The notes beneath the pieces are model-generated. The model was not told the DNA's origin, searched no databases, and saw nothing but the letters and a program-made list of their open reading frames with translations. The translations under genes and the position numbers were made by a program. Below, in pieces: positions 11,076 through 49,437 of a stretch of DNA of 64,000 bases. The stretch is from Anaerolineae bacterium. Lineage in GTDB: Bacteria; Chloroflexota; Anaerolineae; Anaerolineales; UBA4823. Within the stretch, counting starts at the first letter, position 1, and every line of letters begins with the position of its first letter. The DNA is taken from the NCBI GenBank assembly GCA_003130835.1, contig QEXX01000059.1, forward strand, positions 219 through 64,218, read 5' to 3'.

Positions 11076-11093
11076 TTGAAAACCCTTTATGGA

Positions 11094-13376: not shown

Positions 13377-13437
13377 AGGCGACTCAACGAGATTCCCTTT
13401 TCCTAAATGACAGCTTAGCAGAGTTGCTGTGCCATCA

Positions 13438-22096: not shown

Positions 22097-22641
22097 AGGG
22101 ACTCTTGAGGAAACTTCAAAAAACTGCTTCGTAAAGGATTGATGATTCAGACACATTTTAGCACATGAAGGAATCACTACAACTTAACAATTTTGCAAGA
22201 AACAAAATTGATGCAAATTTATATGATATTCAGTGGAGAACACACCTTAACCCCCTTGTCCACAAGCTTAAATCTTAGACTAGTTAGGGTTCACCTGAAC
22301 CATTCACTAGGGTTCAAAGAAAACCTCTACAGCAGGAAGTTCATCCATCACCCTCGAGCTGGATTGTTCAGCATCAAAAGCATCCAAAGATTGAAGGTCA
22401 CACCCAAGAACCTTTTCGACCAATCGGTGAGTTTGCCCATCCTTTGGAATAGTACGGTTTCCATAAAGGATTGTGCTTTTAGTTGTCAGAAAGCCAGTTT
22501 CACACGGCATATTCTCACAAGGTATAATCTACTTAATGCCCCTCCTGATTGGTTCCATGATTGCACTACGAAAATGTCAAGTACAACCTCGTTTGGGAAC
22601 TGTTGAGCCTTTCAGGACGTCTTGAGCGAAAAGGAGTTCTC

Positions 22642-32065: not shown

Positions 32066-32190
32066 GTTTCCGCAGTATAGCATAAACTTAGCTTTGTTTT
32101 GAATGGTGCTAGAGCAATCCCCCCGAGAGGCAGTGTATAATCCTTTTAGCGGACAGCAGATGGTCTCCCTACGCTCCTTCGAGTGCGCAG

Positions 32191-34117: not shown

Positions 34118-35719
34118 CTATCCCTTGCGGGCGTAATTCGGGATCAAAATAGGGGAACGCACAGCCCCATTAACCCCGATTTCATCCAACGCACGGTTCC
34201 AGCTTTCCAAGTGTGCCAAGGTCGGTTTACCGGGTTGGCGTTCTTTGGCTAACTGGGCAGCGGTGACGCCGGCGCGGCGTCCAAAGACGCACACATCCAG
34301 CAAACTGTTGCCCATCAAGCGGTTTCGCCCATGCACGCCGCCGCTGGTCTCTCCGGCTACCAACAAGCCGGGCACACTGGTGCGGCAGTCGGCATCGATC
34401 TTCACCCCTCCGTTTTGATAATGCAAGGTAGGATAAACCAAGATCGGTTGGTGTACCATGTCAATATTGAAGCGTCTGAATTGACGCACCATGGCTGGCA
34501 AAGCCTTTTCAATGGTGCCCGCACCATGAATGAGATCAATCATCGGCGTATCCAGCCACACGGCTGGTTGACCGCTGGGCGTGATCACGCCTAAATTGCG
34601 CTCTTTGCATTCGCGAATGAAAGCGGCTGCTTCGACATCGCGTGGTTCCAGGGGATAAACAAACTGCTCACCCTTGACATTAACCGGCTGAGCGCCCAAG
34701 CCGCGCACTTTTTCAGTGACCAATTGACCTAAAATCTGTTCGGGATAGGCTGCTCCGGTTGGATGGTATTGCATGGTATCCAAAAAAGCCAGTTCTGCGC
34801 CAGCGCGGTAAGCCAATACAATCCCGTCGCCGGTAGCGCCGTAATGGTTAGTGGTTGGAAAACCCTGGTAATGCAAGCGTCCACTACCACCAGTTGCCAA
34901 GACAACCACCTTAGCTCGAGCATAGAAATAGCGTTCGGTCTCAAAGTTCATCAAAATCGCCCCACAAACCGCCCCTTTGTCATCAAGCACCAATTCCACG
35001 GCTGGGCAGAATTCAATGACCTCGATATTCGGTCGGTTGCGCACCTCATCGCGCAAGACACGCATAATCTCTGCCCCGGTATAGTCCCGGGCCGAGTGCA
35101 TGCGTTTGATGCTCGTGCCACCGCCGTGTTCCTCCATCATCACCCCATCGGGGGTTTTATCGAACATGACTCCCAAGCTTTCCAGCCAAGCGATCACAAT
35201 CGGCGCATCCTTAACCAGCGCTTCCACCAGGTCGGGAAAGTTGGTGAAGTGTCCGCCACCAATTACATCCAAGTAGTGCGTAGCGGGTGAATCTTCGGGC
35301 CGGTCGGCAGCTTGGATACCACCCTGTGCCATCATCGTATTTGCATCCCCGAAGCGCAGCTTGGTAACCAAAGTTACCTTTGCACCGTTTTCCTGAGCTA
35401 GGAGAGCAGCACTCGCCCCGGCTCCACCGCCACCGACGACTAAAACATCGGTTTCAAAATCAGGATTGCTCAAATCGAAATGAGCATCAACGTGCGGTCG
35501 GCCTTCGACAACATCTGCCAATTCAATCGGCATGCGCTTGCCTTTATAGCTACCAATGCGCACTTCGCGCATCCCCGATTCGATGTAATCCGGATGAAAT
35601 TTCTTAAGCAGCTCTTGGCGTTCTTCTAAGGGCATCGCCGGAAAAGTTTGACCTAAACGTTGAGGGCGCGTGGCTTCAACAATCTTGAGCTGTTCGAGCA
35701 ATTCGGCTGTGTAAGTCAT
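34118..35719 (-). CDS. FAD flavoprotein of the SdhA/FrdA/NadB/AprA superfamily with an N-terminal extension of about 90 aa; substrate unknown
   Basis: 533 aa. The motifs are DVLVVGGGGAGASAALLA, MQYHPTG, TEKVRGLGA (in place of RGEGG) and RLMGNSLLD. Confidence 0.8.
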   Translation of the reverse strand: MTYTAELLEQLKIVEATRPQRLGQTFPAMPLEERQELLKKFHPDYIESGMREVRIGSYKGKRMPIELADVVEGRPHVDAHFDLSNPDFETDVLVVGGGGAGASAALLAQENGAKVTLVTKLRFGDANTMMAQGGIQAADRPEDSPATHYLDVIGGGHFTNFPDLVEALVKDAPIVIAWLESLGVMFDKTPDGVMMEEHGGGTSIKRMHSARDYTGAEIMRVLRDEVRNRPNIEVIEFCPAVELVLDDKGAVCGAILMNFETERYFYARAKVVVLATGGSGRLHYQGFPTTNHYGATGDGIVLAYRAGAELAFLDTMQYHPTGAAYPEQILGQLVTEKVRGLGAQPVNVKGEQFVYPLEPRDVEAAAFIRECKERNLGVITPSGQPAVWLDTPMIDLIHGAGTIEKALPAMVRQFRRFNIDMVHQPILVYPTLHYQNGGVKIDADCRTSVPGLLVAGETSGGVHGRNRLMGNSLLDVCVFGRRAGVTAAQLAKERQPGKPTLAHLESWNRALDEIGVNGAVRSPILIPNYARKG

Positions 35720-35728
35720 GCCAACCTC

Positions 35729-36418
35729 CTAAGCCTCGATCGGACGAGCTTTATAGCGTTCTTTCAACGCGTTCACATCCAGAGATTTCAATTCGGCGAG
35801 GCTCTGGTCAAATACACCTTCCTGAATCTCCTGGACGCGCTGGTGAAGATGCTCAGAGCGCGGGGATAGATAGCGACCATACAAACGCCGCGCTAAGATG
35901 GCAATGTTGTATTGAGGTTCTTCTGCAGGACAGCGCGCTGCGCACAGACCGCACATGATACAGTCAAAAGACAGATTGGCAACACTGGCAATATCGCCGC
36001 GCATCGCCGCTGCCATGTATCCCTTGACATTTAATTCCTGCGGACAAGCTTTGGTGCAGGTGCCGCAACCCAAACAGCGCAAAATTTCCGGGTAGATTTG
36101 GAAAAGTGTCGAAGCCTGCGCCTGGAGTTGAGCAATGTCATACGTAGCCCGCTTTGCCGGGAAGAAAGGAATCTGCCCAAGATACATCTCCGGTTTAACG
36201 ACCGTCTGGCAAGCCAAGCCGAAATATAGCTTAGGATCGTCTTTGATCCGATAAACGGTTGAACACGCTCCGCAGAAGCCGCCGCGGCAGCCAACGCCGC
36301 GGATCAGGGTGTATCCGGCGTATTCCATTGCCTTCATAATGGTCAAACTAGAAGGCACATCGTAGCGTTTGCCCATAATGTAAATCGGAATCAGATCATT
36401 TCGTTCAGCCATACGCAC
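35729..36418 (-). CDS. Iron-sulfur subunit (2Fe-2S-like N-terminus plus 2x[4Fe-4S] ferredoxin), FrdB/SdhB-like partner of the flavoprotein
   Basis: 229 aa. The cysteine motifs are GVGCRGGFCGACS, CLGCGTCTKACP and CIMCGLCAARCP. Confidence 0.7.
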   Translation of the reverse strand: MRMAERNDLIPIYIMGKRYDVPSSLTIMKAMEYAGYTLIRGVGCRGGFCGACSTVYRIKDDPKLYFGLACQTVVKPEMYLGQIPFFPAKRATYDIAQLQAQASTLFQIYPEILRCLGCGTCTKACPQELNVKGYMAAAMRGDIASVANLSFDCIMCGLCAARCPAEEPQYNIAILARRLYGRYLSPRSEHLHQRVQEIQEGVFDQSLAELKSLDVNALKERYKARPIEA

Positions 36419-36444
36419 TCCTTAAGAATAATTCATCGATCAAG

Positions 36445-37551
36445 TTACTCTCCAACTTCCGTCCATTCATCCGCTTTGAAGGTGACGAGCGGCAAAGGCT
36501 CTTGGACATTGCGTCCGGGTAGATAATCAAAGGTTTGTTGCAAGCGCTGCGCAACGGCACGGAAGACCAGCCCAACCGGCAGTTCTGACGGACAGGCGTC
36601 GGTGCACATGCCACAGCCTACACAGGAAAGCGCCATGTGATTTTGACGGGTGAGGTGAAACAGCATGGTATCGGGAGGCATGCGTTGAGCGCCCTTTTGA
36701 CGCGCCCATTCCAAATATTTCATTGGCTCGTGGTCAAAGACGTGGCTTTTGAAAACACACGTCTTGCAATAACAAATCGGGCAGACGGTCATACAGTTGT
36801 GACAACGAATGCAAGCTGCAAACACGCCAGCGATCCCTTCATCGCCCTCGAGACGCAAACGAATTTCGGCAAAAGCCTGGTCGCGAGCTTGGGTGCGGGC
36901 AGCCAGATAGGCTTCAACTTCGGCCGAGCGTCCATTTGTTGCCGTGCCTTGCCAGCCCAGTTTTTCCGCGATCTCGTCTTGTGCTTCAATCCAAACGCAT
37001 TGTTCTAAATCGCTTTCCAGCAGCCGAATCCGAATGGGGGCATTTTCATAAATCGGTTGTTCGCAAATTTGGCAAGCTGGACGCAGGTCTGGGTTTACAA
37101 AACCGGGTTGTTGACGCACCGCAGTATAAAGCTCAGCCCACAACGGCGCCTCGCTTTGAGCCTGCTTGCGCAAATAAGCCGTAGGGGTATACGTGCCGGC
37201 GCAATCAATGGCAACGATCACCAAATCGTCTAGGCTAGCTTGCGCCATTTTGGTCAGTTCAATCAATGCCCGCGCCTCACAAGAACGCAAAACAGCCGCT
37301 ACGCGCGGGCGCGGCTCACGTAAGCTGACCTTGCCTGCCCAAGTGGCAGCGTTGACCGGCAATACAGGCGCCAGAGGATCGGCATGATCAAGCAAGACTG
37401 CATCGCTCACCAAGGCTGGCGTCACCGAACCACTGGGGGTGCGCATGGGGGTCAGGACGACATCCACAATTTGTTTCTCCAACAAGCTCTTTAAGACACC
37501 TTGCAGGACAGCCAGTGGTTGATGATTTTCGACGGGCAAAGAGATCTTCAT
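36445..37551 (-). CDS. 4Fe-4S dicluster protein, AsrA/FlxB-C/sulfhydrogenase-beta-like electron-transfer subunit
   Basis: 368 aa. It contains CIRCHNCMTVCPICYCKTCVF...HLTRQNHMALSCVGCGMCTDACP. Its N-terminal half resembles FrhB/AsrA-type domains (VLRSCEARALIEL). Confidence 0.6.
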   Translation of the reverse strand: MKISLPVENHQPLAVLQGVLKSLLEKQIVDVVLTPMRTPSGSVTPALVSDAVLLDHADPLAPVLPVNAATWAGKVSLREPRPRVAAVLRSCEARALIELTKMAQASLDDLVIVAIDCAGTYTPTAYLRKQAQSEAPLWAELYTAVRQQPGFVNPDLRPACQICEQPIYENAPIRIRLLESDLEQCVWIEAQDEIAEKLGWQGTATNGRSAEVEAYLAARTQARDQAFAEIRLRLEGDEGIAGVFAACIRCHNCMTVCPICYCKTCVFKSHVFDHEPMKYLEWARQKGAQRMPPDTMLFHLTRQNHMALSCVGCGMCTDACPSELPVGLVFRAVAQRLQQTFDYLPGRNVQEPLPLVTFKADEWTEVGE

Positions 37552-37599
37552 AGTTCCTTCTCTATCTCCATTCGTCCAGATGTTCTACCAACATAGACA

Positions 37600-38031
37600 T
37601 TAAACCGCCCATTGCGTTTTCATGGGGTTAGGCCCTTTGGCACGCATGGCTTCGGTCATCTCGCGCACCGTCTCGGCAAAGCGCGCCCCTTCGCTGGCGC
37701 TGATCCAACGTAACCAGACACGCTCCTCGTCGAAACCCGCGCTTTTCAAAATTTCCTTGAGAGCGATCACCCTGCGGCGTGCTTTGTAATTGCCTTCCTG
37801 ATAATGACAATCGCCGGGATGACACCCACCGATCAAGATTCCATCTGCGCCAGCTAAATCCGCTTTTAACACATACATCGGATCAACGGCCCCGCTGCAC
37901 ATCAAGCGGATAATGCGCACATTGGGCGGATATTGCAAACGGCTTGTGCCGGCTAAATCGGCGCCGGTGTAGGTACACCAATTGCACAGAAAAGCAATGA
38001 TTTTTGGTTCAAATTCGGTCGCTTCTGTCAT
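37600..38031 (-). CDS. mvhD: MvhD-like (methyl-viologen-reducing hydrogenase delta subunit / FlxD-like) 2Fe-2S protein
   Basis: I start at MTEATEFEPKIIAFLCNWC, with AAGGAG 7 nt upstream. The motifs are CNWCTYTGADLAG, IRLMCSG and GGCHPGDCHY. Confidence 0.85.
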   Translation of the reverse strand: MTEATEFEPKIIAFLCNWCTYTGADLAGTSRLQYPPNVRIIRLMCSGAVDPMYVLKADLAGADGILIGGCHPGDCHYQEGNYKARRRVIALKEILKSAGFDEERVWLRWISASEGARFAETVREMTEAMRAKGPNPMKTQWAV

Positions 38032-38072
38032 CCGTAAACTCCTTGCTTTCACTCCAAATTGCGCATGCACAA

Positions 38073-41000
38073 TCAACTCAAAGCTGCATCGATCATCTCG
38101 GCAACTTGCAAGAATTCAAAGCCCAACTGCTGACTGGCTTTGTTCGGACAGGCTGCCACACATGCGCCACATCCCTGACACAACACAGCCACCACTTCAG
38201 CATAAGCTGCGCCGGGCTCCAGACGGCGGGCGCCATACGGACAAACCTCCACGCATAACCCGCAAGCCGAGCACAAGCGCGGGTTGACCGAAGCGATGAT
38301 CGGCGTGGCGGTCAGTTGTTTCTTCGCCAGCAAAGCCACTGCCCGAACTGCTGCAGCCTGCGCTTGGGCAATGGTTTCATCCATAGCGCGCGGCGAGTGA
38401 GCTAAACCGGCTAGGTAGACGCCATCGGCGGCAAAATCCACCGGGCGCAATTTGACATGCGCTTCAAGGAAGAAGCCCTCAGCCGTGAGCGGCAGTTTCA
38501 ATAGGCGGCTCAAGGCTTCGTTACCAGGCTCTGCCTCAATGCCAACGCTCAAAACGACTTGGTCAACGGACAAATGGACTTCTTCGCCTTCTGGCTGAGA
38601 GAGCACATGCACCCAGACCTTTCCGTCAGAACCCGCCTCGACCCGAGGCGGCTGCTCAGCCTCGTATTGCAGAAAGACCACCCCTTGACGGCGCGCTTCG
38701 GTGTAATATGCCTCGCGGAATCCATAACTGCGCAGGTCTCGATAGAGGATATAGACGCGGCTGTGCGGAGAGCGACGCTTGATCTCGAGGGCATTCTTGA
38801 TCGCTTGGGTGCAGCAAATGCGCGAGCAATACGGGTGATCATCATCGCGCGAGTCGACACATTGGATCATCACCAGCGATTCGGGCAACGGTTGCCCTTC
38901 TTTCAATTGGCTTTCGAGTTCGCGCTGAGTGATCACACCCGGCAGTTCACCATAACGATACAGGTGGGTGGGAATTTCCCGCCCGCCAGTAGCGACAACA
39001 ATGGCACCGTGTGTAAGCTCCTCGCAGGAGCCATCGGCGTGACGAATCACCGAAGTATATTGTCCAACATAGCCACGCGTTTCAACCACTTCGCATTCGG
39101 TCAGCACGCGAATGCGCGGTTCATCTCGAATGGCTGCGATCAGGTCACGTAGCAGTTGCTGTGGGTCCGTACCATCTAAACCGATGTAGATATGACGCAA
39201 GTTACCACCCAATTGCGCCTCACGCTCAATCAGGTAAACCGGGAAGCCTTGGCGGGCAATGGAAAGAGCGGCGGTCATGCCTGCCAAACCGCCCCCAACC
39301 ACCAAAGCCTGATGCGCGACTTCGAAGCTACCACGTTTGATCGGTCGCAAGCGGCGCGCCTTAGCAACAGCCATGGCGACCAACTCTTTGGCTTTTTCGG
39401 TGGCTACGTCCGGCGTAGCCCGATGCACCCAAGCATCCTGCTCACGGATGTTGGCAAGCTCAAAGAGATGGGGATTCAATCCCGCCTGACGAATGGTGTC
39501 TTGGAAAAGCGGTTCGTGCGTGCGCGGCGTGCAACTGGCGACGACCACGCGATTTAAGCCGTGTTCTTGGATTTTGGCAACGATCTTTTGTTGCGTATCC
39601 TGCGAGCAGGTATAGAGGTTGCGCTCTGCATAGACGACACCGGGTAAGTTCTTAGCATATTCAACCACCTGCGGAACGTTCACAACCCCGCCGATGTTGA
39701 TCCCACAGTGGCAGACAAATACCCCGACGCGTGGTTCTTCACCACTGATATCGCGTTCCGGCGGGTAAACGGCTTGCCGGGTGAGCGTTCCGCGGCCAGC
39801 GGCTAATAACGCCGAAGCTTGTGCAGCGGCACAACTGGCTTCGATGACGGTTTCGGGGATATCTTTGGGTTCACCAAATGCCCCGGCGACGAAAATGCCC
39901 TCCCGATTGGTCTGCGTGGGAAGGTAATGAGGGGATTCAGCAAACCCAAAGTCATTCAAGTTAATGCCCAACCGCTGCGCCGTTTCGAGTGCTTCTGGCG
40001 TCGGTTTGAGTCCTACCGAAAGCACAACCAAGTCAAATTCTTCTTCGTGCGGAATGGGTTTTCCCTCGGCATTAAAGGTCACATAGGAGACGCGCAGGTT
40101 ACGGCTGCCAGGCACTTCGCGCACACTGGCGACCATGCTGCGCACATAGCGCACGCCGTGCTCTTTTTCTGCTCGGGCGATGTAGGCATCGAAACCCTTA
40201 CCAAAGGCACGAATATCCATATAAAAGATGGTCGGTTGGATGCGACTATCGTGTTCGCGAGCGATGACCGCTTCTTTGGTGGCATACATACAGCAGACCG
40301 AAGAGCAATACCCCTGCCCGCAAGCGTTGTCGCGCGACCCGACGCATTGAATCCAAGCAACTTTTTCGGGGTGGCGTCCATCGGAGGGGCGTTGCACCAC
40401 GCCGGCAAACGGACCAGAGGCGCTTAACATGCGTTCAAACTCAATGCTGGTTACGACATTCGGATAGCGACCATACCCGTATTCCGGCCGAATCTGATCG
40501 CTCAAGGGTTGAACCCCGGGCGCCAATAATACCGCCCCAACCTCGATTTCCTCGATCGTTTCGACTTGGTTATGATCGATGGCTTTGGCGCGGCAGGTAT
40601 AAACGCACTGCAGACACTCCGAGCAAATGCCACAACTTAAGCATCGGGCAGCCTCAGCCCGTGCTTCCTCTTCGCTTAGCCCAGCGTAAACTTCCATAAA
40701 ATCCTGCTTGCGCTCGCTCGCCGGACGAGCTTTAGTTTCAATGCGTGCTTGACGAGCAGCGCTGGACTCCAATAAACGGGCAGCCACTTCGGCTGAACTC
40801 AATTCGACTTTCGGTGGACGAGCCTTTGGCATGGATAACGGCTCACCTCGAAGGTAGCGGTCAATCGATTGCGCTGCACGGTGTCCGGCGGCAATGGCGT
40901 TAACGATGAAGGATGTCCCGGTGACGGCGTCCCCTCCGCCAAAGATGCCCGGCACATTGGTTGCCAAGGTTTCCTCATCCACTTTTAGAAAACGCCCACG

Positions 41001-42596
41001 CACGGTTTCGACTTCCCCGTTTAAGCACTCTAATTCCGGACGTTGGCCAATGGCAAAAATGACGATGTCCGCCGCGATGATCTCCTCCGTGTTAGGAATT
41101 TCGTCAAAATCGGGTCGACCGTCAACAAAGCCGCGGAAATTGACCTGCACACAGCGCACACCGCTGACTTTTCCATCGGCTTGGGTGATTTCTTTGAAGG
41201 TGCGAGAGGGATAAACCGCTATTCCTTCTTCTTCCGCATCGCGAACTTCCCAGTCATGAGCAGGCATGGTCTCGCGACTTTCCAGGCAAGCCATTCCCAC
41301 CCAACTTGCTCCCAAGCGAACCGCGCTCATGGCTGCATCGATGGCAACATTTCCACCGCCCAACACCAAAACACGTTTTCCCTTAAAGCTTTCAGCAACC
41401 TTCGATTTATCCTCTAAACTGACTTGGCGGAGAAAATCGGTAGCAACGGTCACTTGCGGCAAGTCTGCGCCTGGAATAGGCAATTTGATGCCACCATGCG
41501 CCCCCACAGCGACAAACACGGCCTCATACCCCTGTTTCAGCAAAGCGGGTACGTTCTCAACACGGCTGTTCAAGCGCAATTCAACCCCTTCAGCCAGAAT
41601 CTGATCGATTTCGCGTTGCACCAGTTGATAGGGCAAGCGGTACTCTGGCACCCCAACCCGCATCATTCCTCCCGCCACCGGCAGGGCTTCAAAGACGGTG
41701 ACATCATAACCCATACGCGCCAAGTCCAAGGCGGCCGTGAGGCCGGCCGGCCCAGAACCGACCACAGCGACTTTCTTACCCTTTGGCTCAATTTCGCTTG
41801 CCCAGCGAATCTGCTCCGAGCTTAACTCACCGCTGTCCATCTTTGACCAGACCCAATCGGCAACAAAACGTTTGAGCGCCATGATGTTGACGGGTTGGTC
41901 ACTTTGATTGCGCGTGCAGGCTTCCTCGCAGCGATGATTGCACACCCTACCGCACACGGATGGAAAAGGATTCTCCTCCTTGATGGTGCGGTAGGCATCT
42001 AAAAAGCGCCCTTCGCGCACCAAAGCCACATAACCTTGAGCGCGTTGGTTGATCGGGCAAGCATCGCGGCAGGGCGCCATGCCAGCTTTTTCAATGGCAT
42101 ACGCGTTGGGGATGGCTTGGGGATAGGGCTTATAGATCGCCTTGCGTTGTGAAAGTCCGCCGTTGAATTCGTCTCGGCGGGGCACCGGACAAGCTGTGGC
42201 GCAATCCCCACAACCGGTGCAGGCATCCAGTTTTACATAGCGCGGGTGACGGCGCACCTTCACGCGGAAGTTACCGGGTTCGCCTTCGATCCCTTCAATC
42301 TCGGAGGTGGTCAGGATTTCGATGTTGAGATGGCGACCGACCTCCACCAATTTTGGCGACATAATGCACATGGCACAGTCATTGGTCGGAAAGGTTTTAT
42401 CCAATTGCGCCATAATGCCACCGATGGCCGGCGATTTCTCCAAAAGGTAAACTTTGAAACCGGCTTCGGCAAGGTCGAGTGAGGCTTGCATTCCACCAAT
42501 ACCGGCGCCGACAACCATAACAGCGCCGATCGGTTGTTTTGGGGCGTTCGGGGTCATCAAATCTTCTACGCTCATGCTCACTTCCTCACTAGCCAT
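38073..42596 (-). CDS. Giant HdrA-GltD/NfnB-HdrA fusion flavo-iron-sulfur protein (HdrL-like)
   Basis: About 1,507 aa. HdrA module 1 has VVGAGIGGMQASLDLAEAG and TNDCAMCI. An inserted GltD-like NAD(P)H module is present (CGRVCNHRCEEAC, VAVVGSGPAGLTAA, VLVLGGGNVAIDAA). It also has a ferredoxin and HdrA module 2 (VGVFVCHCGINIGG, VVGGGLAGMTAA, CSRICC), and ends in a 2x[4Fe-4S] domain. The start could be ATG 42596 or ATG 42575; the latter has GAGGAAG upstream. Confidence 0.85.
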   Translation of the reverse strand: MASEEVSMSVEDLMTPNAPKQPIGAVMVVGAGIGGMQASLDLAEAGFKVYLLEKSPAIGGIMAQLDKTFPTNDCAMCIMSPKLVEVGRHLNIEILTTSEIEGIEGEPGNFRVKVRRHPRYVKLDACTGCGDCATACPVPRRDEFNGGLSQRKAIYKPYPQAIPNAYAIEKAGMAPCRDACPINQRAQGYVALVREGRFLDAYRTIKEENPFPSVCGRVCNHRCEEACTRNQSDQPVNIMALKRFVADWVWSKMDSGELSSEQIRWASEIEPKGKKVAVVGSGPAGLTAALDLARMGYDVTVFEALPVAGGMMRVGVPEYRLPYQLVQREIDQILAEGVELRLNSRVENVPALLKQGYEAVFVAVGAHGGIKLPIPGADLPQVTVATDFLRQVSLEDKSKVAESFKGKRVLVLGGGNVAIDAAMSAVRLGASWVGMACLESRETMPAHDWEVRDAEEEGIAVYPSRTFKEITQADGKVSGVRCVQVNFRGFVDGRPDFDEIPNTEEIIAADIVIFAIGQRPELECLNGEVETVRGRFLKVDEETLATNVPGIFGGGDAVTGTSFIVNAIAAGHRAAQSIDRYLRGEPLSMPKARPPKVELSSAEVAARLLESSAARQARIETKARPASERKQDFMEVYAGLSEEEARAEAARCLSCGICSECLQCVYTCRAKAIDHNQVETIEEIEVGAVLLAPGVQPLSDQIRPEYGYGRYPNVVTSIEFERMLSASGPFAGVVQRPSDGRHPEKVAWIQCVGSRDNACGQGYCSSVCCMYATKEAVIAREHDSRIQPTIFYMDIRAFGKGFDAYIARAEKEHGVRYVRSMVASVREVPGSRNLRVSYVTFNAEGKPIPHEEEFDLVVLSVGLKPTPEALETAQRLGINLNDFGFAESPHYLPTQTNREGIFVAGAFGEPKDIPETVIEASCAAAQASALLAAGRGTLTRQAVYPPERDISGEEPRVGVFVCHCGINIGGVVNVPQVVEYAKNLPGVVYAERNLYTCSQDTQQKIVAKIQEHGLNRVVVASCTPRTHEPLFQDTIRQAGLNPHLFELANIREQDAWVHRATPDVATEKAKELVAMAVAKARRLRPIKRGSFEVAHQALVVGGGLAGMTAALSIARQGFPVYLIEREAQLGGNLRHIYIGLDGTDPQQLLRDLIAAIRDEPRIRVLTECEVVETRGYVGQYTSVIRHADGSCEELTHGAIVVATGGREIPTHLYRYGELPGVITQRELESQLKEGQPLPESLVMIQCVDSRDDDHPYCSRICCTQAIKNALEIKRRSPHSRVYILYRDLRSYGFREAYYTEARRQGVVFLQYEAEQPPRVEAGSDGKVWVHVLSQPEGEEVHLSVDQVVLSVGIEAEPGNEALSRLLKLPLTAEGFFLEAHVKLRPVDFAADGVYLAGLAHSPRAMDETIAQAQAAAVRAVALLAKKQLTATPIIASVNPRLCSACGLCVEVCPYGARRLEPGAAYAEVVAVLCQGCGACVAACPNKASQQLGFEFLQVAEMIDAALS

Positions 42597-42597
42597 C

Positions 42598-43467
42598 TTA
42601 TGCGGCGGCTGCCAATCTTGAGGAGTGCAGCTCGGCAAGCAACGGCCGCGGATTAATCAAATGTTTGCTCCACCAGCTCTCCGCTTCGGGCAATCCGAAC
42701 GCCAGCCCCATCAATTCGGTAAAGTAAAAAACAGGCAGCTTTTGCGTCCCGCTCTGACGCATTTCCAAGTTAATTTGACAAAGCGGACAACTGGTGACAA
42801 TGGCGGCTGCCCCGGCCTCTCGCGCCCGTTCGGCTAAGCGGTTTACTAAGCGGGCAGCCACGTTGGACTTGGTGAGCGAGAGTCCACCGCCACAACATTC
42901 CGTGGCATACGACCATTCAACAGCTTCAGCGTCTAAGGCTTGCAGCAATTGATTCATCAAGCGTGGATTTTCAGGGTTCTCAAATTGGGTTACCTGCGGT
43001 GGACGTACCAATAGACAGCCATAATAGCCCACCGCTTTAAGTCCTGCTAGAGGTTGCTTGACCCGTTCGCGGATGCGCTGCAATCCTACCCCAATCGTCA
43101 GCACCTCCAACAAGGGGCGCACCGCGATATTGCCTTGATAGTTAAACCCAACGATGTCTTCCAATTCTTTGCGCCGTTGCGGGTCGTGGCGCAAGGCATG
43201 ATCGGCGCTTTTATGGCGGTTGAAACAGGCAGCGCATGGCATTACCAGATCATGCCCAAGCGGTTGCGCCAAAGCCAGATTGCGAGCAGGCAGTGCCAAC
43301 GCTAACACAGGATTGAGACTGTGGGCAGAAGATGCGCCGCAGCAATTCCACTCTTCTAGTTCATGGAGTTCAACCCCTAGGGCATTGAAAACCGCCCGCA
43401 CCGAGGCATCGTACTCACAGGCAGTGGATTCGAGGCTGCAACCCGGATAATATGTATAGGCGCTCAT
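42598..43467 (-). CDS. hdrB: HdrB-like protein (two CCG domains), copy 2
   Basis: 289 aa. It contains YYPGCSL...WNCCGA and YYGCLL...ECCGGG. An ATGA overlap links it to the upstream hdrC-like gene. Confidence 0.85.
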   Translation of the reverse strand: MSAYTYYPGCSLESTACEYDASVRAVFNALGVELHELEEWNCCGASSAHSLNPVLALALPARNLALAQPLGHDLVMPCAACFNRHKSADHALRHDPQRRKELEDIVGFNYQGNIAVRPLLEVLTIGVGLQRIRERVKQPLAGLKAVGYYGCLLVRPPQVTQFENPENPRLMNQLLQALDAEAVEWSYATECCGGGLSLTKSNVAARLVNRLAERAREAGAAAIVTSCPLCQINLEMRQSGTQKLPVFYFTELMGLAFGLPEAESWWSKHLINPRPLLAELHSSRLAAAA

Positions 43468-44045
43468 TTTGCCTCCTGTGCAGAAGCGGGATTCGCAGAA
43501 GGGAGATTCTCTTTAGCAACTGCTTCGGCAGACTTGAGGAAAATTCGTCTAACCTGATCGCGTCCTTTGATCGATTTGGGAAGGACAGGCACTTTGCCTT
43601 TGACAAATAATTGCAATCCGCTATCCATATCAGCCAAGAGGTTCAGCGTCCATAATTTGTAGGCGATCAGCAGACTGGCTTCATGACTGCGTCCCAAAGT
43701 TTGGACTACAAATAAGAAAAGCTTATGGAATTTTGCTGCATCGGGTTCGGCGGGAGTCACGCCGCTGCGCAAGGCTTCCAGCCGCAACGCATCCATCACC
43801 TTCGCAATGTCAATGCCATTGGGGCAGCGCGTCCCACAAGTCTCGCAAGCTGCGCAGAGCCAAATATCGCGGCTCTTCAGCAACCTTTCCCTCTCCCCCA
43901 ACTGCACCATGCGCAAGATGCGATCCGGGCCAAACTCCATCTCCTCCACTACCGGACACCCTGCAGTGCATTTGTGGCAGTGGTAGCAGAGCAGGATGGG
44001 TTGGTTACTTAGCATGGTAATCTGTTCATGAAAGTCTAAGCTCAT
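43464..44045 (-). CDS. hdrC: HdrC-like 2x[4Fe-4S] protein, copy 2
   Basis: 193 aa. It contains CYHCHKCTAGCP and CAACETCGTRCPNGIDI. Confidence 0.8.
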   Translation of the reverse strand: MSLDFHEQITMLSNQPILLCYHCHKCTAGCPVVEEMEFGPDRILRMVQLGERERLLKSRDIWLCAACETCGTRCPNGIDIAKVMDALRLEALRSGVTPAEPDAAKFHKLFLFVVQTLGRSHEASLLIAYKLWTLNLLADMDSGLQLFVKGKVPVLPKSIKGRDQVRRIFLKSAEAVAKENLPSANPASAQEAK

Positions 44046-44217
44046 ATTTCAACCTTTTCGGGTTTGTTTTGGGTTGTGAGTTTTGAGTTCTGAGTTTTGG
44101 ACAGAGTATTTCTTTTGAAATTAAGGTCGCTTCTTTTATTTTTTTGGCTTCTTCGCATAGAGCAATGAGCATTTGCCTTTCCGCTTGCATCTCTACCCTA
44201 AACCCACAACTCACAAC

Positions 44218-45957
44218 TCATAACAACACGTCCACCATGCCCATCACTTGCTCAACACGCCAGTTGCGCACTTGGCTGGCTTTGTTGGGACAGGCAACCA
44301 CGCACGCACCGCAACCTTGACACAGGGCAGCATTGACGGTGGCATAGTTCCAAATCGGATGGATCTGCCGCGCTCCGTAGGGACACACCTTGACGCAGGC
44401 GCCGCAGGCAGCACAGTACTCTTCAATCACGCTGGCAACCAGCGGCGAGGCAGTCATTTCGTTTTTAGAAAAAAGTTGCAGCACTTTTGCCGCTGCCCCA
44501 GAGGCTTGAGAGACCGCCTCAGGAATATCCTTCGGACCTTGTGCCACTCCGGCTAGATAAATGCCGGCTGTCAGGGTTTCCACCGGGCGCAATTTGGGGT
44601 GTGCTTCGTTGAAAAAGCCATAGCCATCGGTACTGATATGCAACAATTGTCCTAGCTCCGTTGAGCCATGCGAAGGCAACATCGGAGTCGCCAAGACCAC
44701 CAGGTCTGCAGCGATTTCTACCGCTCGCCCGGTCAAGGTGTCGCTTCCCCAGACGATGGTCTGATCGCCCTCGCGGAAAACCCGGCTCACTTTGCCGCGC
44801 AGGTACAACACCCCATAGTCAGTCATGGCGCGCTGCACGTATTCATCGTAATTTTTACCTGCCGAACGAATGTCGATGTAAAAAACATACGCTTGTCCAT
44901 TGGGCACACGCTCTTTGTAAAGCATTGCCTGCTTAGCGACATACATACAGCAAACTTTTGAGCAATAGGAGACGCCATGCTCGGGATCGCGGGAGCCAGC
45001 GCATTGTACGAAGACCACCTCGCGAGCAATCTTGCCATCCGAGGGACGGCGGATCACCTCCCCAGAACGAAGCATTTTCTCAAAGGTCAAGCCATCCACC
45101 ACATCGGGAATGTCAGCACCGCCATACTCGGTCAACCGAGCACGATCATACGGTTGCCAGCCACTGGCAACGACAATTGCTCCAACATCAAAAGTAAACC
45201 TCAAGGGTTCAAGCTCATCTAAGGCAACAACGGCGCCATCGGTTGCCGACGGTTTTTGCTCGACTGTGACGCGGAAGTTCCCGACATAGCCAGATAAACC
45301 ATCTACTTCGGCGTTTAGAAGGGTTTGAATATTAGGATGATTCAGCACCTGCTGGATTTTCTTCTCCAGCAAGTCAGGAGCTGCCTGAAAGTTAAGATAA
45401 CTGCCGCTCAGCTCTGCCATGCGTCCGCCAAGATGGTCTTGCCGTTCGACTAAGATGACCGGATAGCCGGCTTCGGCAATATCCAAAGCCGCCTGCATGC
45501 CGGCAATCCCTCCCCCAATCACCAATGTACGGTGGGTTAGAGGGAGGATTAACGGTTCAAGCGTTTCGTTGCTCTTGACCTTTTCGACAATCGACTCGGC
45601 GATCTCAATCGCTTTTTGTGTGGCAGCTTCTTTATCTTGTTGATGCACCCAGGAAACCTGTTCGCGAATATTTGCCGACTCACACCGAAAGCCGTTTAGT
45701 CCAGCCGCCGAAACCGTGCGTCGAAAGGTCGATTCATGCATCGCCGGTGAACAAGCTGCTACAACCACCCCATCCAGTTGGTATTTCTCAATGCTCTCGC
45801 GAATTAACTGTTGACCCGGATCTGAACACATGTACTTATAGTCGATGGCAAAGACAACGTCTCCATTGCGTTGTAACTGCTCAACCACCGCTTTGACATC
45901 TACCGTTCCGGCGATATTATGTCCACAATGACAGACAAACACTCCAATCCGACTCAT
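44218..45957 (-). CDS. hdrA: HdrA/QmoB-like flavoprotein (HdrA N-terminal Cys domain, FAD domain, C-terminal 2x[4Fe-4S])
   Basis: 579 aa. The motifs are IGVFVCHCGHNIAG, VIGGGIAGMQAALD, YCSKVCCMY, CAACGACVKVCP and CQGCGACVVACP. Confidence 0.85.
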   Translation of the reverse strand: MSRIGVFVCHCGHNIAGTVDVKAVVEQLQRNGDVVFAIDYKYMCSDPGQQLIRESIEKYQLDGVVVAACSPAMHESTFRRTVSAAGLNGFRCESANIREQVSWVHQQDKEAATQKAIEIAESIVEKVKSNETLEPLILPLTHRTLVIGGGIAGMQAALDIAEAGYPVILVERQDHLGGRMAELSGSYLNFQAAPDLLEKKIQQVLNHPNIQTLLNAEVDGLSGYVGNFRVTVEQKPSATDGAVVALDELEPLRFTFDVGAIVVASGWQPYDRARLTEYGGADIPDVVDGLTFEKMLRSGEVIRRPSDGKIAREVVFVQCAGSRDPEHGVSYCSKVCCMYVAKQAMLYKERVPNGQAYVFYIDIRSAGKNYDEYVQRAMTDYGVLYLRGKVSRVFREGDQTIVWGSDTLTGRAVEIAADLVVLATPMLPSHGSTELGQLLHISTDGYGFFNEAHPKLRPVETLTAGIYLAGVAQGPKDIPEAVSQASGAAAKVLQLFSKNEMTASPLVASVIEEYCAACGACVKVCPYGARQIHPIWNYATVNAALCQGCGACVVACPNKASQVRNWRVEQVMGMVDVLL

Positions 45958-45968
45958 GCGTTATCTCC

Positions 45969-47372
45969 TCAATCACCCACAGCTTCTAAGACACCCTGTG
46001 CCTGGCTTTGGGCATGGCGCTGTTTTTGGAAGAGCGAAAGCACTTTCGCCGCTGCACCACTCGCTTGAGCAACGGTTTCGGGAATGTCCTTCGGTCCTAA
46101 GGCGGTTCCAGCCATAAACACGCGGGGCGCAATGCTCAAAACGGGGTCTAATTCCTCGTTCGCAGCGCAATAGAAGCCGTTTTCATCGCAAGGGACACCG
46201 AACAAGGCCGCCACCTGAGGGTTAGTGGCGCGGGGAATAACAGCCGTCGCCAAAACCACCAAATCCGCAGCAATCTCGACGGTGCGGTTGCTTAGGGTAT
46301 CTACCCCTTTCACGATGACTTTATCGCCTTCACGGAAAAGCTTGCTCACTTTGCCACGCAAATAAATTACACCATCTTCCTCCATGGCGCGGTTGACAAA
46401 CTCTTCATACCCCTTTCCACCCGCGCGAACATCAATATAGAATACATAGGCTTGACCTTGCGGAAGGCGATGTTTGTAGAGAATAGCCTGTTTAGCCGTG
46501 TACATGCAACAGATTTTAGAACAATAGGGAACGCCGCGTTCAGGATCGCGCGAACCGCTACATTGAACAAAAACCACCTCCAACGGAGGTTTACCATCTG
46601 AGGGGCGTAAGATTTTGCCTGCTGTCGGTCCACTGGCTGCTAATAATCGCTCAAAAGCCAAGCCATCGATCACATCCGGGATTTTTCCCCCGCCGTATTC
46701 AGGCAGGCGAGATTGAGGGAACAGATCGTACCCGGTGGCAAGAATCACGGCGCCGACTTTTTCTTCAAAAAAGGTATCCGTTTGATCCCATTGAATAGCG
46801 CCGGTTGGGCAGAATTTTTCACATGCGCCGCATTTCGGTTTGGCAGGGTTGCCTTTGGCATCCACAGCTGGCACACGCCCAGCTTCGATATCCCACTTAG
46901 ACTGCAAGTAACGGCAGTTCTCAGCGTCAATGACCGGCTTGTTGGGAACAGCTTGCGGTGATAGTGTATAGATTACCTTGCGAGTTCCCACCCCGCGTTC
47001 GAAGAGCGATTCGACCTTGAAGGGACACTTTTCCTGACACACGCCACAACCGGTGCAGATATCCCAATCCACATAGGCCGGTTTACGGCGGATGCGCACG
47101 GTGAAATCGCCGTTTTCATCCTGCTGGATGGAGTCGATCTCACTGTAGGTGTACAGACGGATGTTCTCATGTTTGCCGGTTTCTACCGTTCGGGGGGTGA
47201 GAATGCACTGCGAGCAGTCCAAAGTGGGGAAAGTCTCTGAAAGTTGCGCCATGTGGCCGCCAATCGATGGCTCCCGCTCCACTAAGATCACTTCATAACC
47301 ACTGTTGGCAATATCCAAAGCCGCTTGAATGCCGGCAATCCCCGCTCCAACCACCAAAGCTCGTTCAATCAT
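45969..47372 (-). CDS. hdrA: HdrA/QmoA-like flavoprotein (short form)
   Basis: 467 aa. The motifs are LVVGAGIAGIQAALDIANSG, TLDCSQCILTP, CTGCGVCQEKCP and YCSKICCMY. Confidence 0.85.
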   Translation of the reverse strand: MIERALVVGAGIAGIQAALDIANSGYEVILVEREPSIGGHMAQLSETFPTLDCSQCILTPRTVETGKHENIRLYTYSEIDSIQQDENGDFTVRIRRKPAYVDWDICTGCGVCQEKCPFKVESLFERGVGTRKVIYTLSPQAVPNKPVIDAENCRYLQSKWDIEAGRVPAVDAKGNPAKPKCGACEKFCPTGAIQWDQTDTFFEEKVGAVILATGYDLFPQSRLPEYGGGKIPDVIDGLAFERLLAASGPTAGKILRPSDGKPPLEVVFVQCSGSRDPERGVPYCSKICCMYTAKQAILYKHRLPQGQAYVFYIDVRAGGKGYEEFVNRAMEEDGVIYLRGKVSKLFREGDKVIVKGVDTLSNRTVEIAADLVVLATAVIPRATNPQVAALFGVPCDENGFYCAANEELDPVLSIAPRVFMAGTALGPKDIPETVAQASGAAAKVLSLFQKQRHAQSQAQGVLEAVGD

Positions 47373-47395
47373 TCCACCTGCCTCCCGTCCATCGC

Positions 47396-48271
47396 CTAGG
47401 CGACTGTTGCCCGATAGGGTTCAAAAAGCGGGCGTGGATCGACGCTGTGACCTTCCATTCCCCAGACCTGCTCGGGTAAACCCAGAGCCACAGCCATCAA
47501 TTGGGTGAAGTACAGCACTGGCAAAGGCTTGATTGCCCATCCACGCACAGACTGCTGAGGATAGTCCAAATTGTATTGACATAAGGGACAAGCGGTAACC
47601 AACGCTTGCGCCCCGTGGTGTTGTGCCGAAGCGAGGATGTCTTGCGCCAATTGCTGGGGTACGGTGGGCTTGCTGACCGCCAAGTAGGAGCCACAACACT
47701 CGGACTGATAGGGGAAGGTGATCACTTCACATCCCAACGCCTCCAGGCATTCGTGCAAAATATGGGGATCATCCGGGTCATCTAACTGAATCTCAGCGGG
47801 TGGGCGCAATAATAAGCATCCATAGTAAGGGGCAACTCGCAAACCTTTAAGCGGTTGGCTCACATTCGCCCTCAAGGTTTCCCAAGTCAATTGATCGCGT
47901 AATAGTTCCAAAAAGTGCGTGACACGTACCTGACCCAGATAAGGTTCTTCGGTGAACCAATTAATGCGCTCCAAAACATCCGTGTGTTCCTGCAGAAAGT
48001 TCTGAGTGCGCCGCAGGACATGGAAGCAAATGGCGCATAAGGTGGTCATCTGTCCGCCGGCTTCTTGCGCTTGACGAAGCAAGCGGGTGGGGGCAATCAA
48101 TGTCATCGCATTGTCGGTGGAGAGAGGGAAAGTTGCTCCACAACATTGCCAATCCGGGAGTTCTTGGAATTCAAGACCTAGGGCTTGGGCAACCGCCCTC
48201 CCTGAGCGATCATAACCGCTGGCTTTGGTTGATAAGGTACAGCCTGGAAAATATGGGATGGCCATCTTCAC
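47396..48271 (-). CDS. hdrB: HdrB-like protein (two CCG domains), copy 1
   Basis: 291 aa. It contains YFPGCTL...WQCCGA and YYGCLL...ECCGS. Confidence 0.85.
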   Translation of the reverse strand: MKMAIPYFPGCTLSTKASGYDRSGRAVAQALGLEFQELPDWQCCGATFPLSTDNAMTLIAPTRLLRQAQEAGGQMTTLCAICFHVLRRTQNFLQEHTDVLERINWFTEEPYLGQVRVTHFLELLRDQLTWETLRANVSQPLKGLRVAPYYGCLLLRPPAEIQLDDPDDPHILHECLEALGCEVITFPYQSECCGSYLAVSKPTVPQQLAQDILASAQHHGAQALVTACPLCQYNLDYPQQSVRGWAIKPLPVLYFTQLMAVALGLPEQVWGMEGHSVDPRPLFEPYRATVA

Positions 48272-48276
48272 CTCTC

Positions 48277-48681
48277 TCAGACAGAATACTTACGAAAGCC
48301 ACCGATGATGGCAAGTTGAGGCATTTCTGCCGCTTGTTCAGGAGAAATCTGATTGGGGTCTAACAGGTTGCCATAGGTTTCCATATAGATTTGGCGCAGT
48401 GCTTCCATCACGCGCGGCAGGTCGATTCCTTTGGGACAGCGCGAAACGCAGGTTAGACAAGCCGCGCAAGTCCAGATGGTCTGGACTTGTAAAACCTCTT
48501 CCAGCCCCAGTTGCGCCATGCGGATGACTTGATTGGGCAATATATCCATACTAAACGCCACAGGGCAACCTGCGCTGCACTTGCCGCACTGGTTACAAGC
48601 CAATAGGCTCTGACCGCTAATCGTTTCAATCCGATTGACAAACTCGCCACGAACTGTTTGGAGAGAGATTTTCGTACGCAT
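48277..48681 (-). CDS. hdrC: HdrC-like 2x[4Fe-4S] protein, copy 1 (first gene of the redox operon)
   Basis: 134 aa. It contains CNQCGKCSAGCP and CAACLTCVSRCPKGIDL. Confidence 0.8.
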   Translation of the reverse strand: MRTKISLQTVRGEFVNRIETISGQSLLACNQCGKCSAGCPVAFSMDILPNQVIRMAQLGLEEVLQVQTIWTCAACLTCVSRCPKGIDLPRVMEALRQIYMETYGNLLDPNQISPEQAAEMPQLAIIGGFRKYSV

Positions 48682-49100: not shown

Positions 49101-49199
49101 GGTTCGAGCACGAAAAGGCAAAGCCAGCGAAAGCTGGGGACGCAAAGCCATGGGTCTACCGTCATCGCAAGATGACTACGACTGCCAGGTTGCCGAATG
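49101..49199 (+). promoter_or_regulatory. c-di-GMP-I (GEMM-I) riboswitch aptamer, copy 1 of a tandem pair
   Basis: CACGAAAAGGCAAAGCCAGCGAAAGCUGGGGACGCAAAGCCAUGGGUCUAC...CUGCCAGGUUGCCGAA matches the GEMM-I core (GGCAAA, GNRA-capped P1b, GACGCAAAGCC, 3' GGUUGCCG), as in Vc2. Confidence 0.8.
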
Positions 49200-49282: not shown

Positions 49283-49378
49283 CCAAGACCGATAAAGGCA
49301 AACCCGGCGAAAGCCGGGGACGCAAAGCCATGGATCTACAGCCGGCTTAGCCGGCCAGGATAGCCAGGTTGCCGAAGC
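49283..49378 (+). promoter_or_regulatory. c-di-GMP-I (GEMM-I) riboswitch aptamer, copy 2
   Basis: GAUAAAGGCAAACCCGGCGAAAGCCGGGGACGCAAAGCCAUGGAUCUACAGCCGGCUUAGCCGGCCAGGAUAGCCAGGUUGCCGAA has the same conserved core as copy 1. Confidence 0.8.
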
Positions 49379-49404: not shown

Positions 49405-49437
49405 AACGGGCTTGGTTATCCAAGCCCGTTTTTGTTT
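49405..49437 (+). terminator. Intrinsic terminator (expression platform of the tandem riboswitch)
   Basis: The sequence is AACGGGCTTGG-TTAT-CCAAGCCCGTT followed by TTTGTTT. It ends about 15 nt before the ATG at 49452 and abuts the GGAGAG RBS. Confidence 0.7.

Follow-up and report, generated by a model that had tools for sequence, protein, structure and literature searches.

An eleven-gene Hdr-type array of an Anaerolineae bacterium, most likely a variant of Hdr-linked fumarate reductase

Gene content and layout of the array

We analysed a 64,000-nt stretch of contig QEXX01000059.1 (assembly GCA_003130835.1) from an Anaerolineae bacterium, hereafter the window, in whose positions all array coordinates are given. 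Its minus strand carries an array of 11 co-oriented open reading frames (ORFs; 34118–48681) for Hdr-type proteins and an FrdAB-like pair, which, judged from sequence, is most likely a real and widespread variant of Hdr-linked fumarate reductase. The array starts with hdrC1 (48277–48681), encoding an HdrC-type ferredoxin of 134 aa with two CxxCxxCxxxC motifs, and hdrB1 (47396–48271), encoding an HdrB/SdhE-type protein of 291 aa with two CCG domains (Pfam CCG 7.2e-20). Two HdrA-type genes follow, namely hdrA' (QmoA-like; 45969–47372; 467 aa, with a TrxR-like FAD domain and an inserted ferredoxin domain) and hdrA'' (QmoB-like; 44218–45957; 579 aa, with N-terminal FeS, FAD and C-terminal ferredoxin domains). 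A second set consists of hdrC2 (43464–44045; HdrC-type ferredoxin, 193 aa), hdrB2 (42598–43467; HdrB-type, 289 aa, two CCG domains, Pfam CCG 3.7e-25) and hdrL (38073–42596), an hdrA'-hdrA'' fusion with a GltD/NfnB domain, for which the JGI gene call and our reading of the sequence agree on a 1507-aa product from an ATG (1521 aa from an upstream TTG). The last four genes are mvhD (37600–38031, alternative start 38076; a [2Fe-2S] adaptor, Pfam FlpD 4.6e-52 and 175.6 bits, 143-aa gene call), an fdhB-like gene (36445–37551; a 368-aa FrhB/FdhB-family FeS protein, possibly flavin-binding), an frdB-like gene (35729–36412, alternative start 36418; one [2Fe-2S] and two CxxCxxCxxxCP motifs) and an frdA-like gene (34118–35719; a 533-aa flavoprotein, FAD_binding_2 246.5 bits). 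Because HdrL is a QmoA-like/QmoB-like pair fused into one chain, the locus reads as two [hdrC-hdrB-hdrA'-hdrA''] units followed by mvhD-fdhB-like-frdB-frdA.

The same genes appear in independent JGI (metagenome 3300038964, contig Ga0401068_000013, 560 kb) and Logan calls on the same contig, and the coordinates in our ORF list match those of the initial annotation, whose description of an 11-gene minus-strand Hdr array with these domains and this spacing is borne out. From hdrC1 to frdA the intergenic distances are 5, 23, 11, 172, -4, 1, ~41, 48, ~32 and 9 nt; the 4-nt ATGA overlap of hdrC2 and hdrB2 and the 1-nt gap between hdrB2 and hdrL were read in the sequence. Pfam and NCBIfam support the domain assignments of all 11 proteins, none of which has a predicted transmembrane helix. 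Every NCBIfam match falls under its curated cut-off, and therefore no array gene is an equivalog of a named enzyme.

The inventory of one GltD module, one MvhD, two HdrB CCG pairs and two HdrC proteins given earlier also agrees with our domain searches and Cys maps, in which both HdrBC pairs are intact. All 10 CCG Cys, for two non-cubane [4Fe-4S] clusters, are kept in each of HdrB1 (best NCBIfam models SdhE at 160 bits and HdrB at 143 bits, both sub-cut-off) and HdrB2 (168 bits to the HdrB model, sub-cut-off), while HdrC1 and HdrC2 have two [4Fe-4S] motifs each (Fer4 dicluster in Pfam). Together with the MvhD adaptor, the features by which HdrABC-MvhD systems are recognised are thus found for HdrB and HdrC, and a full-length single-chain HdrA is not: its domains are spread over complementary pairs that score under the HdrA equivalog cut-offs. 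The QmoA-like protein aligns with residues 152-568 of HdrA (8rvu_a), covering the FAD and inserted ferredoxin domains, and keeps the DCxxC motif including Cys197 without the N-terminal and C-terminal domains. The QmoB-like protein aligns with residues 13-249 and 319-651 of the same chain and is without the inserted ferredoxin domain, the Cys197 motif and the MvhD domain. HdrL repeats this division within one polypeptide, as its residues ~41-183 and 674-933 match the QmoA-like protein (51% and 38% identity) and residues ~970-1520 match the QmoB-like protein end to end (39% identity). Its GltD/NfnB-type NAD(P)H-FAD-2x[4Fe-4S] domain (~187-680; both Rossmann motifs and Fer4_20 present, with Pyr_redox_2) interrupts the inserted ferredoxin domain between its two cluster motifs. 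HdrL is a class defined by architecture, and the array has what defines it: a GltD domain for NAD(P)H binding lies within a large HdrA-type protein, and mvhD comes directly downstream. The four HdrA-type FAD modules counted in the initial annotation are indeed present, but on the alignments to the HdrA structure they are two complementary half-HdrA pairs and not four independent bifurcating units. HdrA paralog pairs with such domain complementarity have been proposed to be obligate heterodimers (PMC9012536).

The 368-aa protein had been described as an AsrA/FlxC-like FeS protein, an assignment that profile and structure searches replace. In profile comparisons against PDB it matches FdhB chains over its full length (9t1s_M 1.2e-35, 7bkb_E 4.2e-26, 8rvu_E 9.3e-20), compared with only 0.0067 for sulfhydrogenase beta-type proteins; Foldseek returns 8rvu_E and 7bkb_E first and then FrhB, and its homologs are named formate dehydrogenase subunit beta in public sources. 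NCBI lists a sequence 100% identical to it among the proteins of an Anaerolineae metagenome-assembled genome. From sequence and a predicted model (AlphaFold, predicted local distance difference test (pLDDT) 69, with the ferredoxin part poor), we assign the protein to the FdhB/FrhB family and not to an AsrA/FlxC-like group. FdhB and MvhD serve as adaptors between a catalytic module and HdrA in the Fdh-Hdr and Elp-Hdr complexes of known structure; in the solved methanogen complexes, FdhB is the link from formate dehydrogenase or F420 modules to MvhD/HdrA. In the array, the MvhD-FdhB-like pair is placed directly upstream of frdBA. The FrdB-like protein has the [2Fe-2S] ligands C44, C49, C52 and C70 and two complete [4Fe-4S] motifs (Fer2 and Fer4) and is without a CCG domain, which sits on the separate HdrB1 and HdrB2.

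The longest gap of the array (44046–44217, 172 nt), between the QmoB-like gene and hdrC2, was read directly. It is enclosed by 26-nt inverted-repeat arms (44064–44089 and 44201–44226, 85% complementary) of an intercistronic structured element (44064–44226, minus strand) that is predicted to fold as RNA at -47.8 kcal/mol (z = -4.4). Two related loci (L010 and L085) have a longer gap at this place, in which the arm motif recurs in both orientations. The element may serve in processing, stability or regulation between the two Hdr units. The initial annotation had singled out this gap as a place where an internal promoter or terminator would divide the array, and a consensus scan of its minus strand found no sigma-70-like promoter and no intrinsic-terminator match; the promoter scan as a whole was uninformative (13 promoter-like sites against 10.6 expected).

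Conservation and modular forms across genomes

A scan of GTDB genomes with HdrL gave ~600 related stretches, and a metagenome scan centred on the FrdA-like protein gave 80 further loci. The complete 11-gene order recurs in Anaerolineae metagenome-assembled genomes (MAGs; L001, L003, L009 and L010) with HdrL identities of 63-90%, a near-complete array is found in a Bacillota MAG (L048), and rearranged or expanded arrays occur in others (L002, L004, L005, L008, L016-L018 and L029). The four HdrA-type flavin modules are kept at 55-93% identity. For linkage we pooled the genome and metagenome loci that extend 6 kb or more upstream of the frdA ortholog (43 loci); HdrA-type genes are present in 41 of them and FrdB in 42. 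Among the 28 metagenome loci of that length, HdrA-type genes were found in 26, CCG in 21, FrdB in 27, MvhD in 19, FdhB-like in 23 and HdrL in 19.

The related loci also include smaller forms. The smallest, on an unbinned contig (L151), is DUF3870-hdrC-hdrB-frdB-frdA-fumA-fumB, a thiol:fumarate reductase split over four genes in which the hdrC1 ortholog adjoins frdB/frdA. Two loci (L163 and L146) have hdrC-hdrB-hdrA-mvhD-frdB-frdA with a full-length HdrA of 650 aa; a third (L161) resembles them, but its hdrB precedes hdrC and a weak FdhB-like ORF follows mvhD. Three more (L144, L129 and L134) are hdrCB-qmoA-qmoB-frdBA, and hdrL-mvhD-fdhB'-hdrCB (fdhB' being the FdhB-like gene) occurs without frdAB in Syntrophaceae, Smithella, Acidobacteriota and other loci. 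In the form found in the window, hdrC2B2-hdrL-mvhD-fdhB' stands between unit 1 and frdBA, and larger forms add a third HdrA pair, an HdrD-like fusion and an acyl-CoA-dehydrogenase (ACAD)-like gene.

Since the same gene set is co-located across loci and the architectures form a series, the array is, from comparative sequence evidence, a conserved and modular system and not a chance juxtaposition. The 172-nt internal gap and the insertions at module junctions in other genomes could be read as marks of unrelated operons that came together fortuitously, an explanation that we find hardly credible given a gene set that is co-located and co-oriented in dozens of loci (Anaerolineae, Bacillota, Aerophobetes and unbinned metagenomes). 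The synteny comparison proposed with the initial annotation is thereby answered, and the idea of one super-operon holds for the conserved locus but has to be amended, as the locus is assembled from modules that are also found alone (hdrCB-frdBA, hdrCB-hdrA-mvhD-frdBA and hdrL-mvhD-fdhB'-hdrCB).

We note several accessory features of the relatives. A third HdrA'/HdrA'' pair is present in L002, L004, L005, L008, L017, L018, L044, L092, L093, L098, L099 and L102, so that some relatives encode three HdrA pair units, and an HdrD-like fusion (HdrC + 2x CCG, ~390 aa; Pfam-confirmed in the L004 copy only) lies between the genes of this third pair. A divergent ACAD-like gene is found between frdB and frdA in ~21 related loci (e.g. 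L004:22727-23860, with equivalents in L008, L017, L018, L109, L112, L116, L130, L132, L133, L135, L140, L143, L145 and L156), often accompanied by an extra FdhB-like paralog; it is absent from the window. Two distant loci have a DUF3870 gene on the upstream side of the cluster; it precedes the fumarase genes in the Bacillota MAG (L048:1853-2371) and stands just before hdrC in the unbinned contig (L151:7282-7662).

The FrdA-like protein and characterised relatives

The FrdA-like protein has a complete fumarate/succinate site when aligned to SdhA and NadB structures (HPTG, TE.VRG, PRD, H.Y..GG and G.NRL..NSL), with Asn at the position of the covalent-FAD His; the dicarboxylate-site residues and the Asn are common to all FrdA orthologs. 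Its best NCBIfam model is TfrA (NF004900; 335.2 bits, cut-off 718, covering positions 6-410 of the 546 in the model), the NadB model scores 289 bits, and Pfam gives no match to Succ_DH_flav_C. An 88-aa N-terminal extension is family-specific and kept in all orthologs; this type of extension is found in 370 clusters (50% identity), solely at the protein N-terminus, and the FrdA subfamily comprises more than 120 clusters (90% identity) at ≥74% identity to the FrdA-like protein. An exact look-up of the FrdA-like sequence returned no record, and its AlphaFold model (pLDDT 66) was too low in confidence for a fold search. An AprA-like (sulfur) function was considered and rejected, as the APS reductase match (4e-6) covers the FAD part only.

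The neighborhoods of the relatives point to fumarate. Genes for class I fumarate hydratase alpha and beta lie directly upstream of hdrC1 in four loci (L016, L029, L048 and L144), and in other loci they follow frdA, directly in L151 and after ~5 kb in L163, or lie around frdBA in L150 and L158. The L144 fumarase passes the NCBIfam curated cut-offs (413 > 276 and 277 > 238) and does not pass the tartrate dehydratase model. Malic enzyme flanks the cluster in nine loci (L048, L088, L104, L126, L139, L143, L145, L150 and L163). Altogether, fumarase and/or malic enzyme is found in 17 of 96 related loci. On the strength of this synteny and the intact dicarboxylate site, the reduction of fumarate to succinate is most likely the terminal reaction, and we hold this with fair assurance. 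Covalent flavinylation is needed for efficient succinate oxidation, so the non-covalent FAD position supports the fumarate-reducing direction. The link to fumarase or malic enzyme in only 17 of 96 loci weighs on the other side, with many contigs too short to judge. The terminal reaction, which the initial annotation had left as unknown, is in that sense no longer open-ended, though it remains true that the array matches no characterised complex.

Alternatively, the FrdAB-like pair could act on another substrate or in reverse, for example by oxidising succinate with reverse electron flow, by oxidising L-aspartate, on a different 2-enoate or in an acyl-CoA-linked reaction. In keeping with this, all family scores of the FrdA-like protein are sub-cut-off with NadB near TfrA, the C-terminal domain is missing, the N-terminal extension is unique, and an ACAD-like gene stands between frdB and frdA in the ~21 loci mentioned above. 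We nevertheless think it improbable, as the C4-dicarboxylate site is complete, NadB has no FeS partner of the kind that FrdB represents in 42 of 43 loci, the Asn in place of His disfavours succinate oxidation, and the synteny with fumarase and malic enzyme points to a supply of fumarate.

The closest characterised catalytic relative, by sequence comparison, is methanogen TfrAB, the thiol:fumarate reductase of Methanothermobacter (Heim et al. 1998, as cited in PMC6315080). Both systems are soluble, without a membrane anchor, and have the same fumarate site; TfrA is the best family match of the FrdA-like protein, FrdB-like, HdrC and HdrB together cover the TfrB model (positions 19-89, 131-222 and 265-484), and the minimal relative L151 is just hdrC-hdrB-frdB-frdA. 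The fumarate-binding and catalytic residues and the Asn at the flavinylation site that mark Tfr are all present, and the FAD of TfrA is non-covalent, as is predicted for the FrdA-like protein. The array differs from TfrAB in that FrdA-like reaches 335 of the 718 bits set by the curated model, has no C-terminal part and carries the 88-aa N-terminal extension; TfrB is one polypeptide whereas three genes take its place in the array; and the host is bacterial, with no evidence of coenzyme M (CoM) or coenzyme B (CoB). The array also adds the HdrA, HdrL, MvhD and FdhB-like modules.

Hdr-coupled bifurcating fumarate reduction has already been proposed in print: an HdrABC-FlxABCD-(KorABCD)-TfrAB complex for tubeworm symbionts and Chromatiaceae (PMC6315080; PMC11636981), and Thiomargarita has a frdA-hdrA-hdrA-mvhD-hdrDEF cluster (PMC4914600). 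The array is an uncharacterised variant of what was proposed for the sulfur-oxidising symbionts, with the most elaborate architecture. The concept is shared: a module oxidising NAD(P)H would feed HdrA, with a Tfr-like fumarate reductase as the high-potential acceptor and ferredoxin as the low-potential one, and in both cases the evidence is gene clustering and not biochemistry. They differ in the NADH input, which is FlxA in the symbionts and GltD/NfnB inside HdrL in the array, in the HdrA of the array being split into complementary pairs and duplicated, in the FdhB-like protein taking the place of FlxBC, and in the array being without 2-oxoglutarate:ferredoxin oxidoreductase or a reductive tricarboxylic acid cycle context, its host presumably being a fermentative member of the Anaerolineae. 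We found no published description of the Anaerolineae-type array in the literature on bifurcating fumarate reductase, Anaerolineae Hdr/Frd and thiol:fumarate reductase with HdrA.

HdrL clusters are known from Db. autotrophicum (PMC2702500) and S. fumaroxidans (Sfum_0819-0824, "HdrABC/HdrL"; PMC5947623) and are uncharacterised. As in the array, mvhD and the gene for an FdhB-like FeS protein come after a large HdrA-GltD fusion, and hdrB and hdrC are next to them. Those of sulfate reducers have no FrdAB, and their suggested role is to supply DsrC and the reduction of sulfite; the window is without sat, apr and dsr genes. The methanogen Fdh-MvhD-HdrABC and Elp-Hdr complexes (PDB 7bkb, 9t1s and 8rvu) have homologous HdrA, HdrB, HdrC, MvhD and FdhB-family subunits, whereas the array has FrdAB in place of FdhA or the F420 site and an HdrA split into half-modules. 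Since the fumarate couple is far more positive, the direction of electrons through MvhD must differ from that in the methanogen complexes.

Several other assignments were tried and rejected. QmoABC and the Gram-positive qmoAB-hdrCB clusters resemble the array in having an A-type HdrA without and a B-type HdrA with the N-terminal domain next to hdrCB. The qmoC model is matched at only 60.6 and 63.6 bits (cut-off 300) in its N-terminal part, with no transmembrane helix, and the QmoB-like protein is without the MvhD-like tail; aprAB and sat are lacking from the window. FlxABCD-HdrABC is rejected as there is no FlxA-type gene and the 368-aa protein is of the FdhB type (1.2e-35 versus 0.0067 for sulfhydrogenase beta-type proteins), and complex II (quinol:fumarate or succinate:quinone reductase) as there is no transmembrane protein, the FAD His is replaced by Asn and Succ_DH_flav_C is missing. 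These results agree with the initial annotation, which recognised no characterised complex; with the NCBIfam scores sub-cut-off and no QmoC membrane domain, none of Qmo-Apr, Flx-Hdr, MetFV-Hdr and Bam is an ortholog of the array.

The flanks of the array in the window (chemotaxis genes, proteases, alpha-2-macroglobulin, glycosyltransferase, TauE and PTPS) give no metabolic context. They include a chemotaxis cluster (2444–13445, minus strand; MCP, CheR, CheB, a CheA-CheW fusion, HDOD and EAL proteins) and a bacterial alpha-2-macroglobulin of 1994 aa (22561–28545, plus strand). Past the 3' end of frdA lies a TauE/SafE permease ORF (31211–32503, minus strand; the true gene is probably 284 aa, as in the JGI call), kept there only in the closest relative, L010, and overlapped by a 514-aa ORF (32191–33735, plus strand) without a family match that JGI also calls as a gene. 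Upstream of hdrC1 and divergent from the array is a riboswitch-ORF unit on the plus strand, with tandem cyclic di-GMP (c-di-GMP)-I aptamers (49107–49197 and 49288–49377; RF01051 76.9 bits, GGC variant RF03167 77 bits), a terminator-like hairpin after both (49405–49430) and a 562-aa ORF without a family match (49452–51140), after which comes a SpaA/prealbumin-fold surface protein (51611–53074). Two minus-strand "terminator-like" matches upstream of hdrC1 were discarded, being helices of these plus-strand riboswitches.

Proposed electron path and its meaning

We favour, tentatively and at not quite an even chance, the reading that the array encodes a cytoplasmic, quinone-independent fumarate reductase with Hdr-type bifurcating flavoproteins and an NAD(P)H module; we infer its electron path, donor, acceptor, bifurcation and assembly into a single complex. 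The catalytic core would be FrdA-like and FrdB-like, which with one HdrC/HdrB pair would amount to a split TfrAB. Added to it would be two asymmetric HdrA cores (the QmoA-like/QmoB-like heterodimer and HdrL), the embedded GltD/NfnB and the MvhD-FdhB-like adaptor pair. The sole recognisable soluble donor is NAD(P)H, through the GltD/NfnB domain of HdrL. It would enter at this domain and pass electrons to an HdrA flavin, where they would be split. The exergonic branch would run from MvhD through the FdhB-like protein and FrdB to the non-covalent FAD of FrdA, reducing fumarate (~+30 mV) to succinate, and a low-potential acceptor, most likely ferredoxin (Fd), would be reduced at the inserted ferredoxin domain that is free in the QmoA-like subunit (net: 2 NAD(P)H + fumarate + Fd(ox) -> 2 NAD(P)+ + succinate + Fd(red)). 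The HdrBC pairs would be internal relays or act on a thiol/disulfide carrier. We favour a fumarate reductase that depends on NAD(P)H and reduces ferredoxin as well, because the HdrA half-modules, MvhD and the FdhB-like protein are parts of known bifurcating machines. Fumarate reduction by NADH yields -58 kJ/mol (PMC13147460, Table 1), and the published HdrABC-FlxABCD-TfrAB model follows the same logic (PMC6315080), with co-expression reported (PMC11636981).

A simpler enzyme could be made of the same parts, namely a non-bifurcating soluble NAD(P)H:fumarate reductase in which the Hdr-type subunits are merely electron wires. Hydrogenobacter thermophilus offers a functional precedent in its characterised five-subunit NADH-dependent fumarate reductase, a soluble, multi-subunit, pyridine-nucleotide-dependent and quinone-free enzyme (Miura et al. 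2008, as cited in PMC13147460), and GltD-like, HdrB/C-like and FrdAB parts are all in the array. We give this explanation little weight, since four HdrA-type flavin modules with bifurcation-specialised domains, conserved at 55-93% identity, would be costly for a wire, and the transfer from NADH to fumarate is strongly exergonic at the value given above. The extra subunits of the H. thermophilus enzyme (FrdCDE) are reportedly GltD-like and HdrB/C-like; the enzyme is not known to have an HdrA, MvhD or FdhB-like protein, and its genes are reportedly dispersed.

Several observations weigh against the bifurcating scheme. The solved Hdr complexes use MvhD as the input to the bifurcating flavin and HdrBC as the high-potential exit, so a fumarate reductase on the MvhD side inverts their scheme. 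As GltD occupies the usual ferredoxin-docking position in HdrL, NAD(P)+ could be the acceptor instead of NAD(P)H the donor. Three loci (L144, L151 and L163) are without the NAD(P)H module, and therefore the donor is not constant over the family. The two intact HdrB CCG sites suggest that a thiol/disulfide substrate may be involved, and the insertions at the qmoB/hdrC2 and hdrL/mvhD junctions in other genomes (e.g. a GAF histidine kinase in L016 and L029) fit two or more separate complexes.

The main rival takes up these last points, with two or more enzymes between which a thiol/disulfide carrier would diffuse, as it does between Tfr and Mvh-Hdr in methanogens. One enzyme, the Tfr-like FrdAB with HdrC1B1 and with or without the QmoA/B-like pair, would oxidise the thiol, and the other, HdrL-MvhD-FdhB'-HdrC2B2, would re-reduce the disulfide with NAD(P)H, possibly by bifurcation. 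It accords with the intact 10 CCG Cys of both HdrB proteins, with the junction of units 1 and 2 being an insertion hot spot with a structured element, and with each part standing alone elsewhere: hdrCB-frdBA in L151, hdrCB-qmoAB-frdBA in L144, L129 and L134, and hdrL-mvhD-fdhB'-hdrCB in Syntrophaceae, Smithella and Acidobacteriota, as in Sfum_0819-0824 (PMC5947623). On the other hand, the genes directly preceding frdBA are mvhD-fdhB' in most loci, and mvhD abuts frdB without fdhB' in L163 and L146, suggesting a direct MvhD-FrdB wire; the interleaving by which unit 2 separates unit 1 from frdBA is conserved, and no DsrC/TusE, lipoate-protein or CoM/CoB-synthesis gene was seen in the window. On balance we regard the carrier as possible but rather less likely than not. 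The strictest form of the bifurcating reading, in which all 11 products form one soluble megacomplex with two asymmetric HdrA cores for thiol-independent bifurcation from NAD(P)H to fumarate and ferredoxin, is in our view unlikely.

Fumarate is among the most positive organic electron acceptors. To our knowledge, its energy has so far been known to be harvested via membrane quinol:fumarate reductases. If the array is an Hdr-coupled soluble fumarate reductase, fumarate would join crotonyl-CoA, heterodisulfide and others on the short list of high-potential acceptors that drive ferredoxin reduction through flavin-based bifurcation, and the enigmatic HdrL/FdhB-like module of sulfate reducers and syntrophs would gain a context with an identifiable substrate. 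The graded architectures (hdrCB-frdBA, hdrCBA-mvhD-frdBA and the 11-gene form) are a natural dissection of module roles, and with such a widespread system (>120 FrdA clusters and 370 extension clusters) candidates for biochemistry are abundant. Should the single-megacomplex form hold, flavin-based bifurcating enzymes would gain a new biochemical class, one that amounts to energy-conserving fumarate respiration without a membrane or quinone, and the profit that the abundant fermentative Anaerolineae draw from succinate formation would be explained.

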